From an uncultured Gammaproteobacteria bacterium (GTDB taxonomy: Bacteria; Patescibacteriota; Patescibacteriia; UBA1558; 2-01-FULL-52-15): a stretch of 60,660 nt of DNA. Location of the stretch: the NCBI GenBank assembly GCA_964441335.1, contig CAYTUI010000002.1, forward strand, positions 1 to 60,660, written 5' to 3'. The position numbers and the translations under genes are program-made. Within the stretch, counting starts at the first letter, position 1, and every line of letters starts with the position of its first letter. The notes beneath the pieces were generated by a model. That model was not told the DNA's origin. It did not search any database and worked only from the letters and a program-made list of their open reading frames with translations. Below, one piece after another: positions 3,828 to 9,586 of this stretch.

Positions 3828-6602
3828 ATGTTAGTTGTATTGGTCGCGTTTATTCTACTAGGAAGTTTATTTTTAGGAGCTGTTGTTTATTTTAGGAACA
3901 AAAGAAATAAACTAAACATCTATTTTGGTGTGATGGCAGTCGCTAATGCATGCTGGGCATTTGTAAATTTAATGTCCGCCTTTGATCAGAATGCAATTTG
4001 GGTCAGGCTTCAATATACGCTAGGCGCAATTCTTTTAGGAGCTGGCCTGGTGTGGTTTTTTTATTTAATTGAAAGAAAGTCAAATATTTTTCGAAGCATT
4101 ATAATATACCTTACTTCATTTTTTTTCGCTGTCACTAGTTTATATGGTGAATTGATAATTAAACGCGTTGATAAAATTAATTTTGGAAGTTTTGAGGGAG
4201 AATTTGGTTCGTTGTTCTTTTTTTACACCGCTTTTATTGGATTGACGCTAATTTTTATTGTTATCAGATTATTTGTTGAGACATTTAGATCAACTGGCAA
4301 TAGGAAATTGCAGCTCTTATATGTATCCTTCGGATCTATGGTTTTTGCTGCATTAGCGATTGTTCCAAGTTTTTTGTTGCCCCTTATTGGGTTTAATAGT
4401 TTTAGTCAGTTCGATCTTATTGGTTCTTTTATATATATATCGTTTATTACCTATTCGATAGTACGATATAGACTTATGAACATAAAGATGGTGATTGCCA
4501 GAAGCGTTTTATATTTTCTACTAGTCGCTACAGTAACAAGCTTTTTTACATTTGTTATTTTCTTAATTCGAGAAATTTTTGAAGTAAAAACTCGCATTTC
4601 AGAATGGGCACTGATTATGTTAGCGTCGTTTATAGTGGTAGTTGCTTTGGACCCGCTGAAAAAACTCCTTTCACGAGTCACTGACGATTTTTTTTACAAA
4701 AATAGAGTTAATTACGACCAACTCTTAAGAAATTTAAGTACTATTATCGCCCGAGAAATTGATATGGAGGTTCTGCTTCAACGCATAAAGGACACTTTAC
4801 AGAAAGACCTGAAAGTTAAAAATGTGGATATTGTGATCCACACTGATGGTTACAAAAAAATTAATAATCAGAAGTTTGAAGACTACGCTATAAATGACGA
4901 AATTATCAATTTGATCAAGAGCGCTGATGATATTATAGTCTTGGAAGAATACCGCAGAAAAGTTGAAGATATGTCGGCTTCAGTTTTAAGGGATAATGTG
5001 ACCAAAGCCATAGAGACTATGGATTCTTTAAATTGGCAATTGATTATCCCGGTGATAGTTGAATCCAAACTGACCGCTGTAATTATTTTGGATTATAAAC
5101 TATCCGGCGATGTATATAGTAAAGAAGATATCAGCTTCTTCAATGTTTTTTCTCCACAAATTGCTATCGCCATTGAAAAGTCCCGACTTTATGAGGAAGT
5201 GGAAAATTTCAATCTAGAGTTGAAAGAGAAAATAGACAGGGCAACCAAGAAATTAAAGACTGCTAATGTGGATTTGGGGGAGAGGAATAAGTTTTTAACT
5301 ATTACGCAAAATATCAGTAATTTGATTAGTCGTAATTTGGATATTAATAATGTTATTCAGATTATAGTTGATAGTATATCTACGGAATTGGGGTATATAG
5401 GTGGTATCTTAAGTTTCAAAGACGAGAGTAATAAATATCTTTATCCGGCGGCGATTACCCGGGGAGAAGCGGCTAAGAAGGGTTTGGCTTTATTGCCACG
5501 GCCGGTCAGCGAGTATAAGGCTAATATTGGTAATAAGGAAAATTTTGGAGTGCGCTGTTTCACTACCGGTAGCGCTATTACCAGCGATTCCTTTGCCGAC
5601 TTTTTCGCGCCGCCAATAGAAAAGGAAGCCGCGGATAAAATTCAACAAGCACTTAATATAGTAACAGTCGTGGGCATTCCTATCTACTCGGAAAATAAAA
5701 TTATTGGCGTCATTCATTACTTGTTAGCTATTAAAGAGGGAAGTATTAGTCGTTTGGATTATGAAATGATGAATAATTTGGCTGACCAAGTGGGTATCGT
5801 TTATAGAAACGTTAAACTGTATCAGCAGTTGGAGAATACTAATAAGAAATTACAGGAGGCTAATATCCATTTAAAACGATTGGATCAGGCCAAGTCCGAG
5901 TTTTTATCCATTGCTTCCCATCAATTGCGCACTCCAACTTCAGCCATCAAAGGCTATCTATCTATGTTATTGGAAGGGGATTATGGTCCGGTAAAACCTG
6001 AACAAAGGAAAGTGGTGGCTGTTGTTTATGAAAGCGCCGCGCGGTTAGCCAGATTGATTAATATCTTTTTGAATGTTTCCAGGATTGAAGCCGGCCGTTT
6101 TAAATTAAATAAAGCACCGACTGATATGAATGAAATTATTAAAGGTGTAGTAACTGAATTGCAACAGCAGGCCAAGACTAAAGATTTGGAATTAAAAGTC
6201 AATTTGCCGACTAAGGCGCCGATACTTAATGTGGACAGCGATAAGATCCGCGAAGTTGTTCTTAATCTGGTTGATAATTCCATCAAGTACACAGCAAAAG
6301 GTTTTGTGGAAATTAACAGCCGCGTCAAAGGGGATCGGTATGAATTTTGGACCAGAGATTCGGGTATGGGTATTAGGACCGATGAAGTAAATACGCTTTT
6401 CAAAAAGTTTGTCCGCGGGACAGGAGTGGCGCAGGTTAATACTGGTGGCTCCGGTTTAGGATTATATATTGCCCAAAGAGTAATTAAAGAACATGGCGGC
6501 CATATTTGGGCGGAGAGCGACGGCTTAGACAAAGGCAGTATTTTTAAATTTACTTTAGCTATGGATAAATCCCCGGATATTACGAGTGGGCATTTGAAGT
6601 AG
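3828..6602 (+). CDS. multi-pass membrane sensor histidine kinase with GAF-like regions
   Basis: About 8-9 N-terminal hydrophobic helices; H-box SHQLRTPTSAIKGY; G1 DSGMGI; G2 GGSGLGLYIA; no response regulator adjacent. Confidence 0.9.
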   Translation: MLVVLVAFILLGSLFLGAVVYFRNKRNKLNIYFGVMAVANACWAFVNLMSAFDQNAIWVRLQYTLGAILLGAGLVWFFYLIERKSNIFRSIIIYLTSFFFAVTSLYGELIIKRVDKINFGSFEGEFGSLFFFYTAFIGLTLIFIVIRLFVETFRSTGNRKLQLLYVSFGSMVFAALAIVPSFLLPLIGFNSFSQFDLIGSFIYISFITYSIVRYRLMNIKMVIARSVLYFLLVATVTSFFTFVIFLIREIFEVKTRISEWALIMLASFIVVVALDPLKKLLSRVTDDFFYKNRVNYDQLLRNLSTIIAREIDMEVLLQRIKDTLQKDLKVKNVDIVIHTDGYKKINNQKFEDYAINDEIINLIKSADDIIVLEEYRRKVEDMSASVLRDNVTKAIETMDSLNWQLIIPVIVESKLTAVIILDYKLSGDVYSKEDISFFNVFSPQIAIAIEKSRLYEEVENFNLELKEKIDRATKKLKTANVDLGERNKFLTITQNISNLISRNLDINNVIQIIVDSISTELGYIGGILSFKDESNKYLYPAAITRGEAAKKGLALLPRPVSEYKANIGNKENFGVRCFTTGSAITSDSFADFFAPPIEKEAADKIQQALNIVTVVGIPIYSENKIIGVIHYLLAIKEGSISRLDYEMMNNLADQVGIVYRNVKLYQQLENTNKKLQEANIHLKRLDQAKSEFLSIASHQLRTPTSAIKGYLSMLLEGDYGPVKPEQRKVVAVVYESAARLARLINIFLNVSRIEAGRFKLNKAPTDMNEIIKGVVTELQQQAKTKDLELKVNLPTKAPILNVDSDKIREVVLNLVDNSIKYTAKGFVEINSRVKGDRYEFWTRDSGMGIRTDEVNTLFKKFVRGTGVAQVNTGGSGLGLYIAQRVIKEHGGHIWAESDGLDKGSIFKFTLAMDKSPDITSGHLK

Positions 6603-6824
6603 CGTTTAATATAAGATTTAGCTTTTTATTACCGTGTAGCCTGACTACTCGGTTTTTAGTTTGTAGCCAATAGCAAGTCGTTACCAGTTAATACCAATTA
6701 GTAATTCCCTCATTACTTATTCTTCATTCCTTCGCCCAGCCCTCGGCCATGAGCTCGGGCCGAATGGAGGGCGATCAGGTCGGATGACCTGACATTCCTC
6801 ACTCCTCAATCCTCAACTAACTAA

Positions 6825-6852
6825 TTGACAAACCCTTTATATTTGCTAAAAT
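6825..6852 (+). promoter_or_regulatory. sigma70-like promoter (TTGACA, 16-nt spacer, TAAAAT)
   Basis: TTGACA at 6825-6830 and TAAAAT at 6847-6852, read directly from the sequence. Confidence 0.5.
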
Positions 6853-6865
6853 TGAGTCATTAGAT

Positions 6866-6959
6866 AGCCGTCCATTGACAATAAGCCGTCGCTAAACATG
6901 AGAGAAATTTGGTAGCCGTCGCATTAGCCTGTATATAACCGGAATACGACAGCCGTCGC
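6866..6959 (+). repeat. four same-orientation copies of AGCCGTC(C/G)C
   Basis: Copies at 6866-6873 (AGCCGTCC), 6884-6892, 6914-6922 and 6951-6959. Confidence 0.8.
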
Positions 6960-7158
6960 CAAATATAGCAGACAGGAAATAGGTGTATAAATGCTTTCAA
7001 GCCCTGCCCTTAGTATAAATATTGAGGATAGGCCTGGAAAAGCGGGTTTAGTTCATTACAATATGGGATATTGTCGGAGCTAAAGCTGTTTTATTTTCAT
7101 TGAGGTTAGGATCAACCCCTTGACCAAGGCGTTGAACAATTTAGATCAAACAATATCT

Positions 7159-7184
7159 ACAACCATTAAAGATGGTTGTTTTTG
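7159..7184 (+). terminator. intrinsic terminator / attenuator
   Basis: ACAACCAT-taaag-ATGGTTGT 8-bp stem followed by TTTTG, 32 nt before the ATG at 7216. Confidence 0.65.
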
Positions 7185-7215
7185 TTAAGAGAATGTTTTG
7201 TTTGAGTAATTAAAT

Positions 7216-7683
7216 ATGCACAAATTCCTACTAAAAATTGAATCGCCGATTGAAGATCAGCTTAGAGCGGCAATTGAAGCAGACTCTGTCCTTAATGTTT
7301 ACACGCCTTTTGAAAGTAAGCGTGCGTCTGAGAGCCATGAAGACTTTATAGCCAGAGTCAGAAGTGATGCCTCCAGATATCAGTTTGTAAGCGTTAAGTA
7401 CGACGACTCGTTCTACTATGTGGCCTTTGATTTCTCCGGTCCTCTCATAACTGCGTACGGAAAATTTCAGGTTATTCCTGCACAAGTTGTTGGTGGCACA
7501 TGGGGCGTTCATTACTGCATTTTTTACCCTGGATTAAGCAATGCGTTGGAGCAACAGGAAATTTTTGCGCGGATAGACTCCGGTTGCTTGTCGGGTATGA
7601 TTATGGGAGATATAACATGTGATTGTAAGAATCAACTTGAAGAGTCAATAAAAAAATTGCGCATCAAAAAAGCGGTGTCGTGA
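7216..7683 (+). CDS. GTP cyclohydrolase II family protein, N-terminal part (gene interrupted by a -1 frameshift)
   Basis: RIDSGCLSGMIMGDITCDCKNQL resembles the RibA zinc motif (C-x10-C-x-C); the ORF stops just after A7 and A6 runs. Confidence 0.7.
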   Translation: MHKFLLKIESPIEDQLRAAIEADSVLNVYTPFESKRASESHEDFIARVRSDASRYQFVSVKYDDSFYYVAFDFSGPLITAYGKFQVIPAQVVGGTWGVHYCIFYPGLSNALEQQEIFARIDSGCLSGMIMGDITCDCKNQLEESIKKLRIKKAVS

Positions 7684-8135
7684 TTGAAATACCTGGTCAG
7701 GATGGTAGAGGGTGGCATCAGTACAAGATGGCCAATCAGTATTTAATGAACGAGTTGGAAATGAATACAGTTGAGGCCGCTCGAGCCTTTTATAAGAAGG
7801 AGGAATATATTGATCGTAGATCCTACCATGAATGTGCTATCATTTTGCGCGCCCTAGGATTTAACGAGAACCACAGCTTTTCACTTGGTACGAATAACCC
7901 ATCCAAGACCAAAGCATTCCAGAGGTTTGGGTTTAATTTAAAGAGGGTAGAAACGGTAGTGGCCAAGGAATTGAGTGTTTATGCTATTAAAAACCTTAAC
8001 GCAAAACAGAAGGAGTGGAATCATGAAAAAAGACCTGAGACTGAAGGGACCGGTCGCGATAGAAGGATTGTCGGGGACCGGGAAAGGAACGGTCGCGAAG
8101 TTACTCGCGCAGCAGTTGGGGATTATGTACTTTGA
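7680..8135 (+). CDS. GTP cyclohydrolase II family protein, C-terminal part (frame -1 relative to 7216-7683)
   Basis: IEIPGQDGRGW, NTVEAA and TNNPSK segments resemble the RibA C-half; the last ~110 nt overlap cmk and look like read-through tail. Confidence 0.65.
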   Translation: MIEIPGQDGRGWHQYKMANQYLMNELEMNTVEAARAFYKKEEYIDRRSYHECAIILRALGFNENHSFSLGTNNPSKTKAFQRFGFNLKRVETVVAKELSVYAIKNLNAKQKEWNHEKRPETEGTGRDRRIVGDRERNGREVTRAAVGDYVL

Positions 8136-8706
8136 CATCGGCCTGGTATTTCGCGGGGCTACCTATCTTTACCAGCAGGGAATAATAAATAATCTTGCGG
8201 ATGTCTATGCAAAGATTTTGAAGCAGGATTTGGTGAAGTATGTTTGGGATGGTGGGCAATGTTTTTTTGAGGCAGATGGTCAGGATTTAACTGAACGCAT
8301 ACGGACAGAAGAGGTCGCGACTCAAACAAGCAGCATGCTCGTTAGTGGCGCCCGCATGAAAATGATGGGCTTGATAGCCAGAGCATTGGTTAGACAAGTG
8401 CAGGTGTATGTGTGCGACGGGCGCGCTGTGTCGCAGTTTCTGTGTCCTGACGCATCTCATGTGTTTTATCTGACAGCGGATGAACATGTGCGGGTGGATC
8501 GCCGATATCAGGAGCTGTTGGCACGTGGTCAATCTGTCAGTCGGGCTGACGTAGCTAGTCTTATCCGGGCGCGTGATAAGGCAGATATGGAACGGGAAGT
8601 ATATCCCCAGATTATTTTCCCAACCTATCACCTGATTGACACGACGTATTTGACACCGCAGTCTGTGCGTCAGAGACTTATGGGCATTATCAAGGAGACA
8701 ATATGA
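8023..8706 (+). CDS. cmk: cytidylate kinase-like
   Basis: P-loop IEGLSGTGKGTVAKLLA, RTEEV, CDGRA, LTADEHVRVDRR and ARDKADMER match type-1 CMP kinase; the ATG at 8023 is preceded by AGGAGTGG. Confidence 0.8.
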   Translation: MKKDLRLKGPVAIEGLSGTGKGTVAKLLAQQLGIMYFDIGLVFRGATYLYQQGIINNLADVYAKILKQDLVKYVWDGGQCFFEADGQDLTERIRTEEVATQTSSMLVSGARMKMMGLIARALVRQVQVYVCDGRAVSQFLCPDASHVFYLTADEHVRVDRRYQELLARGQSVSRADVASLIRARDKADMEREVYPQIIFPTYHLIDTTYLTPQSVRQRLMGIIKETI

Positions 8707-9077
8707 AACGAGCAGAAAAACCGAGAAAAATCCAAATTCGGCGAGATCAGCACTTTAAAAAGAGAGGTGGTTTTGCCAAAGTTTACCGCATCATTTGCGG
8801 AGATTGTGGCCAGCCAGTGCTGATTTATCAGAAAGACGGTGTTGGCCACTTGTTTCGCTGTTACCTCAACAGGATCCACTGGCCGGATGTCGTGGCCAAT
8901 TTGTCTCAAGACAGGTGTCTGGGTGTTGAAACGCTACCACCTTTGGTCTGCCTAAATTGCGAAAATGTCATTGGTATACCAATGCGTCACCATGACGGAC
9001 GTCTGGCGTTTAAGCTACGACAAGGCTACTTCCGTAAGGTTCTTTACAAGGAGGAAACTCTACCAAGCCAGCCATAG
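8703..9077 (+). CDS. hypothetical zinc-ribbon protein
   Basis: Two CxxC pairs (CGDCG, CLNCE); ATGA start/stop overlap with cmk; no family recognised. Confidence 0.6.
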   Translation: MKRAEKPRKIQIRRDQHFKKRGGFAKVYRIICGDCGQPVLIYQKDGVGHLFRCYLNRIHWPDVVANLSQDRCLGVETLPPLVCLNCENVIGIPMRHHDGRLAFKLRQGYFRKVLYKEETLPSQP

Positions 9078-9093
9078 CTCTGCTATGGCTGGC
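9067..9093 (+). terminator. GC-rich hairpin at the operon end (no T-run)
   Basis: GCCAGCCATAG-ctctg-CTATGGCTGGC, a perfect 11-bp stem overlapping the stop codon. Confidence 0.45.
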
Positions 9094-9133
9094 ATCCGAA
9101 TTAATTTAAAACAGTGAATTGTAACGCGATAAT

Positions 9134-9586
9134 ATGAATTTACATAGTATAAACGAGCTAGAAAAAATGGAAGCAATTTTTGAAACAATTATTGTTCCGA
9201 ACGGAGTGCATACAGTAGAAGATGTGGAACTAGCCTGCAAATGCTCTAGGCCGGAAGTTATTAAGACTTTACTCTTTATTGGTCGTAGGCCAGTTGTTGT
9301 TTTGATGACTGGTGATAAAAAGGTCAGTTTAGATAAATTGAAAGAAATCAGGGGTGACAAGTCGCTCCGACTTGCCAGTAGAGACGAGGTAAGTGACCTA
9401 ACAGGCGTCTTGGCAGGCACGGTTTCGCCTTTTGGCCTCGCAGAGGTAGATGTAATTGCTGACAGGAGGGTAATGGAGCTTGAATCACTGATTATGGGAA
9501 GCGGAAAAAGTGATACGTTGCTTAAGATGACCGGCTCCGAGTTTAGGAAATTGTACAAGGGGTCTTTTGAGGCTGTTTCGCAGTAG
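9134..9586 (+). CDS. YbaK/ProX-type aminoacyl-tRNA trans-editing domain protein
   Basis: About 150 aa with GTVSPFG and a general YbaK-like pattern; the antisense 168-aa ORF is low complexity. Confidence 0.7.
   Translation: MNLHSINELEKMEAIFETIIVPNGVHTVEDVELACKCSRPEVIKTLLFIGRRPVVVLMTGDKKVSLDKLKEIRGDKSLRLASRDEVSDLTGVLAGTVSPFGLAEVDVIADRRVMELESLIMGSGKSDTLLKMTGSEFRKLYKGSFEAVSQ

Follow-up and report, generated by a model that had tools for sequence, protein, structure and literature searches.

Patescibacteria, the Candidate Phyla Radiation (CPR), have no nucleotide synthesis of their own and live on host nucleotides, which raises the question of how they convert or burn these nucleotides. In RibA, the GTP cyclohydrolase II (GCH-II) of riboflavin synthesis, Tyr105 has a role in ring opening and catalysis. 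Structures of UTP cyclohydrolase (7EEV, 7EJ3) were reportedly presented by Zhang et al. in ACS Catal 2021, and we know of no zinc-ribbon or cmk partner of that enzyme. The consulted excerpt of PMC10366380 describes the roles of the RibA zinc motif and of Arg128, which acts in pyrophosphate release. The enzyme acting on UTP belongs to the URC pathway of uracil catabolism, according to excerpts of PMC12507026 and PMC8709784. In the Yersinia CMP kinase, Ser36, Arg110 and Asp132 bond cytosine, Tyr40 stacks on it, and the variants Arg110Ala and Arg131Ala are inactive, as stated in an excerpt of PMC3603445. Here, we analyze a locus with homologues of both enzyme types on contig CAYTUI010000002.1, a stretch of 60,660 nucleotides hereafter called the window. 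The locus holds a GCH-II-like gene, a cytidylate-kinase-like (cmk-like) gene and a zinc-ribbon gene. The window is contig C2 of the genome G000, a 1.27-Mb assembly of 82 contigs rated 100% complete, and the sequencing runs containing its sequence are labelled as groundwater metagenome, with no RNA run listed among them.

On balance, we favour an interpretation of the region as a reshuffled copy, specific to this lineage, of a module conserved in Patescibacteria. The module combines a divergent RibA/UrcA-type zinc cyclohydrolase, a small four-cysteine zinc protein and an altered, bacterial-type cytidylate-kinase homologue. This copy appears to have been acquired by transfer from another Patescibacterium. 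The three genes are adjacent on one strand:

7216-7683, plus strand: GCH-II-like gene, N-terminal part (frame 1, open reading frame (ORF) of 155 amino acids; family homology stops at 7656)
7650-7656, plus strand: A7 run with the frame break (A_AAA_AAA in frame 1)
7656-8135, plus strand: GCH-II-like gene, C-terminal part (frame 3, open from 7641, ORF start at 7680; catalytic core to about 8033)
8023-8706, plus strand: cmk-like kinase gene (227 amino acids; AAGGAG 7 nt before the ATG)
8703-9077, plus strand: zinc-ribbon gene (124 amino acids; AAGGAG 5 nt before the ATG)

The second GCH-II ORF runs 113 nt into the kinase gene, and the kinase and zinc-ribbon genes overlap by ATGA, both as the initial annotation of the window had described. 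The kinase and zinc-ribbon genes are intact in the window copy.

A conserved module in Patescibacteria

A search of 1.84 billion representative proteins with the window's N-terminal GCH-II ORF produced 44 matches. Among these is a small family of intact proteins of 250-285 amino acids with a shared N-terminal extension and 41-47% identity. The relatives come from metagenome-assembled genomes of Candidatus Saccharibacteria, Staskawiczbacteria and Paceibacter. All six loci in reference genomes (L034-L039) run from the GCH-II-like gene to a zinc-ribbon gene (107-117 amino acids) and on to a Cytidylate_kin gene (183-246 amino acids). Pfam scored five of these kinases at 86-129 bits, and the kinase of L035 was confirmed by its PF02224 match. 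A metagenome scan added 22 further loci. Purpose-built profiles served to annotate 31 loci other than the window, which include near-duplicates (L109/L110; L037/L112; L034/L097/L098) and hence represent fewer independent cases. In 25 of the 31 loci, the GCH-II-like gene has a zinc-ribbon gene as its neighbour. A cmk-like kinase is present in 21 loci, with a guanylate-kinase-like gene in its place in three more. Of the six loci lacking a zinc-ribbon gene, four stop no more than 224 nt from the GCH-II-like gene. A gene resembling orotidine monophosphate (OMP) decarboxylase is found in four loci, and the variant with OMPdecase and Guanylate_kin domains was confirmed by Pfam in L050-L052. No OMP decarboxylase was found in G000, so the window copy does not represent the OMPdecase form of the module.

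Gene order differs among lineages. The order cyclohydrolase, zinc-ribbon gene, cmk-like kinase is found in 18 of the 31 loci; others start with the zinc-ribbon gene, followed by the cyclohydrolase, OMPdecase and gmk, and two loci contain two cyclohydrolase paralogues. None has the window's order of cyclohydrolase, kinase and zinc-ribbon gene, the nearest being L107 with cyclohydrolase and kinase and no zinc gene found. The trio is a conserved module whose genes are kept together as their order varies, and not a chance chain. Such persistence despite changing order argues for a shared function. A TrmB-like regulator gene adjoins five of the six reference-genome loci and eight of all 31. No such gene was found beside the window module, and the nearest homologue in G000 is on contig C23. 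The window copy differs from the usual form of the module in its gene order, its frameshifted enzyme gene and the absence of an adjoining TrmB-like gene. We found no published description of the module in the literature on GTP cyclohydrolase II and cytidylate kinase in Patescibacteria. The literature found on UTP cyclohydrolase and URC1 dealt solely with the yeast and bacterial URC pathway and contained nothing on this module.

Some loci show additional features. Two GCH-II-like paralogues, one per module type, lie side by side in L099 (3068-4816) and L101 (3923-5643), which suggests that the substrates of the two module types differ. In L034, the second gene upstream of the trio (4194-4874) encodes an archaeal-type UMP kinase (TIGR02076, 185 bits, above cut-off). 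A NUDIX gene flanks the L037 module and a HIT-like gene the L039 module.

The distribution of the module is patchy. A sample of 400 genomes of the phylum yielded 36 matches at E values up to 1e-10, and four of these genomes (G113, G431, G099 and G176) have matches of the module type. The other 32 matches are restricted to the catalytic core, lie in frames of about 200-510 amino acids (mostly 400-450) and reach no more than 96 bits; two of them were examined and are RibBA fusions. None of 40 relatives of G000 has the GCH-II-like gene. Absence from relatives combined with the rarity of the module type across the phylum fits acquisition by transfer. The initial annotation had likewise proposed an acquired module, partly from an elevated content of guanine plus cytosine (G+C). 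The patchy distribution fits this proposal, and the compositional argument is weak. The whole unit has 45.9% G+C, a value reached or exceeded by 12.4% of 5659 equal-sized genome segments, and is not significantly elevated. The 1-kb segments of G000 average 42.2% (standard deviation 4.4), rather than the roughly 33% assumed before. Both GCH-II halves match the genome mean (42.5% and 41.7%), the zinc-ribbon gene has 47.2%, and the kinase gene alone is high (49.4%, 93rd percentile). The perceived contrast stems mainly from the low G+C content (36.6%) of the upstream neighbour, a histidine-kinase gene.

The GCH-II-like enzyme and its split frame

The GCH-II-like protein shares several conserved elements with RibA. 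The zinc motif C-x2-G-x7-C-x-C is present as C-LS-G-MIMGDIT-C-D-C at about 7582-7625, and its columns are invariant in the family. An invariant R in the I-D-x-R block aligns with A-D-E-R128 of Escherichia coli RibA and is the Arg128-equivalent. The (E/D)GRG block is kept in the family as well. The residues aligned with E. coli His51 and Glu53 are Asp and Gly here, and an N-terminal extension of about 95 residues is family-specific. The position of Tyr105 holds a Tyr in the window and in P0069, an intact relative of 306 amino acids; the other members of the family have R, K, I or Q there. The ribA equivalog model TIGR00505 gives the window halves 25.8 and 27.3 bits and P0069 71.7 bits, compared to a cut-off of 205.85. 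The Pfam model PF00925 scores the halves at 21 (cut-off 23.3) and 27.3. No match to lumazine (DMRL) synthase was found in G000, with a control matching in 14 of 14 genomes and other rib families not searched. The low ribA score of the intact relative and the lack of a lumazine synthase match support the view, already expressed in the initial annotation, that the gene probably has no part in a riboflavin pathway.

Predicted structure relates P0069 to RibA and to UTP cyclohydrolase. A model of P0069 (mean predicted local distance difference test, pLDDT, of 87) matches RibA (2BZ0) with Z 19.1 over 172 residues and a root-mean-square deviation (rmsd) of 2.3, covering model residues 67-250. UTP cyclohydrolase (7EEV) is matched with Z 17.8 over 228 residues and an rmsd of 4.3, aligning model residues 6-279 with chain residues 43-412, on a par with the match to RibA and over more residues. 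Since this second match starts at residue 6, the UTP enzyme also has a counterpart of the N-terminal extension. DUF1688, the URC4 family, had no match in G000, but its control matched in no genome either, so that this negative carries no weight. A predicted complex of GCH-II-like residues 1-275 with the zinc protein scored 0.01, which speaks neither for nor against binding. A metagenome scan with P0069 returned nothing, in a searched set from which the window's own records were possibly left out.

The protein might instead be a true GTP cyclohydrolase II, with a product destined for a use other than riboflavin or for GTP breakdown, and with the kinase an ordinary cmk co-transcribed by chance. 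The best sequence and fold matches are indeed to RibA, and the retained zinc motif, Arg128 and TNNPxK, together with the Tyr at the Tyr105 position in the window and P0069, fit such an enzyme. The variable Tyr105 position in other members, the replacement of His51 and Glu53 and the scores of all tested members far below the ribA cut-offs argue against it. The family is moreover recurrently linked to a nucleoside monophosphate kinase with altered base-reading residues, or to OMPdecase and guanylate-kinase homologues, which likewise speaks against this explanation. We consider this explanation unlikely as a whole, and GTP an unlikely substrate.

In the window, the GCH-II-like gene is divided between two frames. 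The ORF at 7216-7683 covers PF00925 positions 28-73 and the ORF at 7680-8135 covers positions 85-160. P0069 and the window's C-terminal ORF share a 90% cluster, and P0069 is encoded by a plain, unbroken ORF. Its contig of 7471 nt also encodes a kinase (P0002, 77% identical to that of the window) and a zinc protein (P0012, 98%). After NQLEESIKK, P0069 reads IAQQGSGMIFEIPGQDGRG, and after ESIKK IAQQGSGMIFEIP. Frame 1 of the window gives NQLEESIKK before it reaches the A7 run at 7650-7656, and frame 3 from 7656 gives IAHQKSGVVIEIPGQDGRG. Beyond the run, frame 3 reads IAHQKSGVVIEIP; a further A in the run would yield the reading of the intact relative. Judged by this alignment, the window lacks one A of a would-be A8 run and the gene is thereby split. 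An A6 run at 7666-7671 was considered as the site of the break and ruled out by the comparison with P0069, which places the break at the A7 run.

Apart from the break, the two halves show no defect. With an X at the break, the window copy is identical to P0069 at 265 of 306 positions (87%). The differences comprise 23 of 149 positions in the N-terminal part, 6 of 119 in the core and 12 of 38 in the tail. All 25 invariant columns of the family are kept across the two halves. At 29 differing sites, the commoner family residue is the window's in 9 cases and that of P0069 in 14, with 6 ties. The tail of about 34 codons, which extends into the kinase gene, is also found in P0069 and not in the rest of the family. 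Residues 276-306 of the P0069 model are disordered (pLDDT below 50), and the tail looks like read-through created by a local rearrangement. Identity to the P0069 contig is uneven within 2 kb, at 98% for the zinc protein, 95% for the GCH-II core, 85% for the GCH-II N-terminal part and 77% for the kinase. Across 7216-9077, this hints either at recombination or at strongly differing constraints.

The break might also stem from an error of sequencing or assembly, with the gene intact in the cells, as it lies in a homopolymer and the depth of 6.6-9.4 is low. Over 6772-9300, contigs of three runs (X1-X3) nevertheless agree with the window throughout, without a single difference or gap. These runs represent three samples of one study from 2015-2017, which are possibly the window's own source and thus not fully independent. 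The 155-amino-acid product is recorded from 7 contigs of four sources. Homopolymer splits are also rare in the assembly. Among 1301 homopolymer runs in G000, 10 candidate split ORF pairs were found (9 besides this gene), and Pfam supports clear one-gene splits only for the GCH-II-like gene and an OLD-like nuclease, with a ComEC-like pair as a possible third. We regard an error as very improbable. The OLD-like nuclease (AAA_15 and TOPRIM; C8:2618-4379, minus strand) is in two frames at an A7 run, and the ComEC-like pair (Competence, then Lactamase_B; C22:13652-15881, minus strand) meets at an A7 run as well. Another GCH-II-like gene of the family, on a metagenome contig (L116 3799-3886), is in two frames at a T9 run.

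Alternatively, the A7 run might serve to make full-length enzyme on purpose, through a -1 shift of the ribosome or slippage of RNA polymerase, leaving the module fully active. Heptamers of the A_AAA_AAA type are slippery, as known from dnaX and insertion sequence (IS) elements. The A_AAA_AAA at 7650-7656 is in the 0 frame, formally a -1 slippery heptamer (X_XXY_YYZ), and its position is precisely that at which a -1 shift brings back the family reading. Neither half has another defect, and the sequence is identical in the samples from 2015-2017. Recoding is, however, disfavoured by the lack of a stimulatory structure after the run (z 0.42 and -0.35). An A or T run at the break position is absent from all six homologous genes compared, and the close relative is a plain ORF of 306 amino acids. 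An A7 run is also short for efficient transcriptional slippage. Purposeful recoding thus appears quite unlikely. We read the split as a probably real and recent one-base deletion rather than a conserved recoding device. Low-level rescue by slippage is possible.

The kinase, the zinc protein and their possible role

The cmk-like protein is a complete but altered member of its family. It matches PF02224 at 125 bits over the full length (positions 1-210 of 211) and scores 107.9 against TIGR00017, below the cmk equivalog cut-off of 135.55. The P-loop GTGKGT, Arg41, Arg131 and the RD..D..R block are kept. Compared with the CMP kinases of Yersinia and E. coli, Ser36 is replaced by Ile, Tyr40 by Phe, Asp132 by Ala and, in a less certain part of the alignment, Arg110 by Lys. 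Two of the three cytosine-bonding side chains are thus lost and the third is changed. The kinases of the module, here called cassette kinases, have these changes in common (D[FI]GL.FR and CDGR[TSA]). In a tree of 25 kinases, the type found in relatives of G000 was split off cleanly (100/100).

The kinase appears to be the only one of its kind in the genome. PF02224 matches this kinase alone in G000, and PF13189 matches nothing there above cut-off. Twelve of 13 genomes of the same family contain only weak PF02224 matches. The weak-match genes examined, in G008 and in four genomes of the wider order (G020, G028, G032 and G036), encode about 190-216 amino acids. The G008 gene, between rluD and rplS, is a Cytidylate_kin2 member (64.7 bits), and its protein found nothing in G000 (best E = 0.03). 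The rluD-rplS slot of G000 is assembled (C59:413-2385) and holds a guanylate kinase (77 bits), and the same slot in a genome of the same family (L022 332-2274) holds a Cytidylate_kin2-type kinase. In five of five other module-bearing genomes, PF02224 has a single strong match, the cassette kinase. A Cytidylate_kin2-type query detected only the cassette kinases in those five genomes, and these weakly, with no separate gene found. The two kinase types look mutually exclusive in the genomes examined, which are few and drafts. Such exclusivity fits a cassette kinase doing the housekeeping job.

As the sole Cytidylate_kin gene, the kinase is not a mere accessory copy. The initial annotation had set a sole, vertically inherited cmk in synteny shared with relatives against acquisition of the unit. 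The gene is indeed the sole copy; it is not an ordinary vertical cmk, and its synteny is not shared by relatives. The description of the unit as a nucleotide-processing module gains from the finding that the family travels with a zinc-ribbon gene and a nucleoside monophosphate kinase. It needs to be amended insofar as the kinase is also the sole cmk-type gene and more than an accessory.

The zinc-ribbon protein has no Pfam or NCBIfam family. Among 13 sequences, C32, C35, C83 and C86, forming two CxxC pairs, are invariant, a YQKDG.G block is common to all, and the window protein falls with the cassette-linked type. Seven of the 40 relatives have homologues, always away from GCH-II-like genes. 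Two of these seven stand-alone genes adjoin NUDIX genes, and one of the two also MazG. An AlphaFold model of the protein (pLDDT 91) has its best fold matches nearly all among beta-tent zinc proteins, including MsrB1 and Mis18a (Z 4.2) and the CULT domain of cereblon. The C-terminal domains of RIG-I, MDA5 and LGP2 match at Z 3-3.8, and the best Foldseek E value is 0.087. A language-model search for look-alikes pointed to a large unnamed bacterial cluster and to a cluster automatically labelled 'Yippee'. A beta-tent fold is a lead from modelling, not a finding.

The patchy distribution and nucleotide-directed chemistry could also indicate a phage-derived unit or an anti-phage nucleotide-depletion system, and a phage-related role had been raised in the initial annotation. 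A scan of viral_contigs with the family alignment recovered no relative, and neither the enzyme nor the zinc protein has a family in PADLOC or PHROGs. For the kinase, these collections gave only weak P-loop-type matches (VakA at 29 bits, thymidylate kinase at 18.6 bits). No integrase was seen near the unit, and no convincing flanking direct repeats or mobile-element ends were found within 6400-9400. The kinase being the sole cmk-type gene in all five other carriers looks like housekeeping use. A phage or defence origin is highly unlikely on this evidence.

We suggest a tentative, and rather doubtful, chemistry by analogy with RibA on GTP and UTP cyclohydrolase on UTP, with a pyrimidine nucleotide more likely than GTP as the substrate. 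The kinase would raise a nucleoside monophosphate towards the triphosphate. The cyclohydrolase would bind the triphosphate, release pyrophosphate through the Arg128-equivalent and open the base ring with a zinc-activated water. The zinc protein might be a ligand-binding accessory. In the window lineage, the cassette kinase may now also do the CMP, and perhaps UMP, kinase work of the cell after displacing the lineage's Cytidylate_kin2-type kinase. This housekeeping work would keep the unit under selection. As for the cyclohydrolase, it would have lost its activity recently, or a -1 slip on A_AAA_AAA would still yield small amounts of it. More speculatively, and with little expectation of being right in full, the trio could constitute an undescribed route. 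A pyrimidine monophosphate would be activated and its ring opened by a RibA-like enzyme, with a beta-tent zinc protein as nucleotide-binding partner. The kinase would have become essential upon displacing the Cytidylate_kin2-type enzyme, and the module would survive with the ring-opening enzyme off or throttled by a one-base slip site.

Several observations weigh against our interpretation. In the kinase tree, the window kinase is on a long branch beside the kinase of L035 and the canonical set, and no cassette clade is resolved. A single cassette clade is not rejected by the approximately unbiased (AU) test (p = 0.163). Because G000 is a draft of 82 contigs, a second kinase could sit in a gap despite the completeness rating. 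The cyclohydrolase is nearer in sequence to RibA (E = 1e-17) than to UTP cyclohydrolase (E = 0.13, 14.8 bits), and it retains the TNNPxK of RibA where the UTP enzyme differs, so that GTP is also a candidate substrate. The zinc protein has weak fold matches, none above Z 4.2 and all in the range of common arrangements. G+C content gives no clear sign of transfer. The window gene has no excess of unusual residues over the intact relative, which indicates that the break is recent or that the gene is still in use.

The locus nonetheless matters in several respects. The module couples a RibA-type ring-opening enzyme with a kinase of altered base-reading residues and a zinc protein. The window copy represents a natural experiment, in which the enzyme gene is broken and the kinase and zinc genes are kept. 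It also presents an apparent replacement of one kinase type by another. The proteins are small and soluble-looking, which makes their function directly testable.

Genomic setting and comparison with known systems

The module is framed by the following features:

6731-6801, strand not assigned: short dispersed repeat, rich in GC, that closely precedes the promoter-like site, outside the module and marking its upstream edge
6825-6852, plus strand: promoter-like site (TTGACA and TAAAAT 16 nt apart, the latter preceded by TG; consensus match)
6853-7215, plus strand: long leader (363 nt, without a convincing ORF, up to the ATG at 7216)
9067-9093, plus strand: perfect hairpin (12 bp with a 3-nt loop, spanning the stop codon of the zinc-ribbon gene)

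A promoter followed by a long leader had been described before, and a promoter-like site and the leader are present. The sigma-70-like site at 6825-6852 has 11 of 12 consensus matches and is the best among 11 such sites in 6500-9400, where shuffled sequence gives 5.8 +/- 2.5. The leader contains four copies of AGCCGTC(G/C)C (at 6866, 6884, 6914 and 6951) within 95 nt, possibly an operator array. The 9-mer AGCCGTCGC has only 8 occurrences in the 1.27-Mb genome; three lie in the leader, and another is found at 6517 on the opposite strand. At 7159-7187, a 9-bp hairpin followed by the U-run UUUUUGUU forms a terminator-like site 29 nt 5' of the first start codon and resembles an attenuator. The leader as a whole folds with z -2.6. 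An Rfam scan of 6400-9400 up to E = 1 gave no match, and neither the leader nor the terminal hairpin has a second copy in G000. The hairpin at 9067-9093 is real (-23.7 kcal/mol, z = -6.5, 0 of 200 shuffles folding equally well), with 12 perfect pairs rather than the 11 first reported. No U-run follows it, and it was not listed by a terminator scan.

Stretches upstream of other GCH-II-like genes have inverted TTGTCAA/TTGACAA-type repeats in common (L034 5762-5979, L035 5900-6000, L036 5666-5940, L038 5586-5961 and L039 5732-5934). The sequence TTGACAAC occurs in 4 of the 6 stretches compared. From their sequence, these inverted repeats upstream of module genes are likely an operator. The window's leader contains TTGACAA twice and not the full palindrome. 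An unrelated freshwater run contributes two short contigs, each with 2 differences, over 6819-6882 and 6962-7105.

The repeat at 6731-6801 recurs elsewhere in G000, where other contigs have at least 14 partial copies (27-59 nt, 91-100% identical), and folds as two hairpins (z -2.7). Contigs of three runs end at this repeat, and the summed depth climbs roughly tenfold there, from about 8 to 87-130. A gene for a HisKA_7TM-type histidine kinase adjoins the module in the window (3828-6602), in L037 (2136-4092) and in L039 (9707-11452). Such a kinase also adjoins a stand-alone zinc-ribbon gene (L010 1916-2581), and G000 contains four of them. A kinase with only HATPase_c (L038 2709-4352) lies near a fourth module locus.

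The module resembles known systems in its parts. The zinc protein is like beta-tent zinc proteins (Yippee/Mis18, MsrB, CULT and RIG-I-like C-terminal domains) in its size of about 110-125 residues and in two CxxC pairs about 50 residues apart. It differs in the weakness of its matches (Z 3-4.2; Foldseek E of 0.09 and above) and in belonging to no Pfam family. The kinase is like bacterial (d)CMP kinases (E. coli 1CKE/1KDO, Yersinia 4E22 and S. aureus 2H92) in its full-length domain, P-loop, Arg41 and Arg131. It is unlike them in having Ile, Lys and Ala at Ser36, Arg110 and Asp132, and in scoring below the TIGR00017 cut-off. The cyclohydrolase shares with RibA (E. coli 2BZ0/2BZ1, PF00925) the catalytic fold, zinc motif, Arg128-equivalent, (E/D)GRG and TNNPxK. 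It departs from RibA in its N-terminal extension, the replaced His51 and Glu53, the variable Tyr105 position, the low equivalog score and the frameshift of the gene in the window. UTP cyclohydrolase (7EEV, 7EJ3) is itself a protein of about 400 amino acids without TNNPxK and with marginal sequence similarity to the family. As a RibA-type enzyme working outside riboflavin synthesis on a pyrimidine triphosphate, it matches the fold over more of P0069 than RibA does, including the N-terminal extension.

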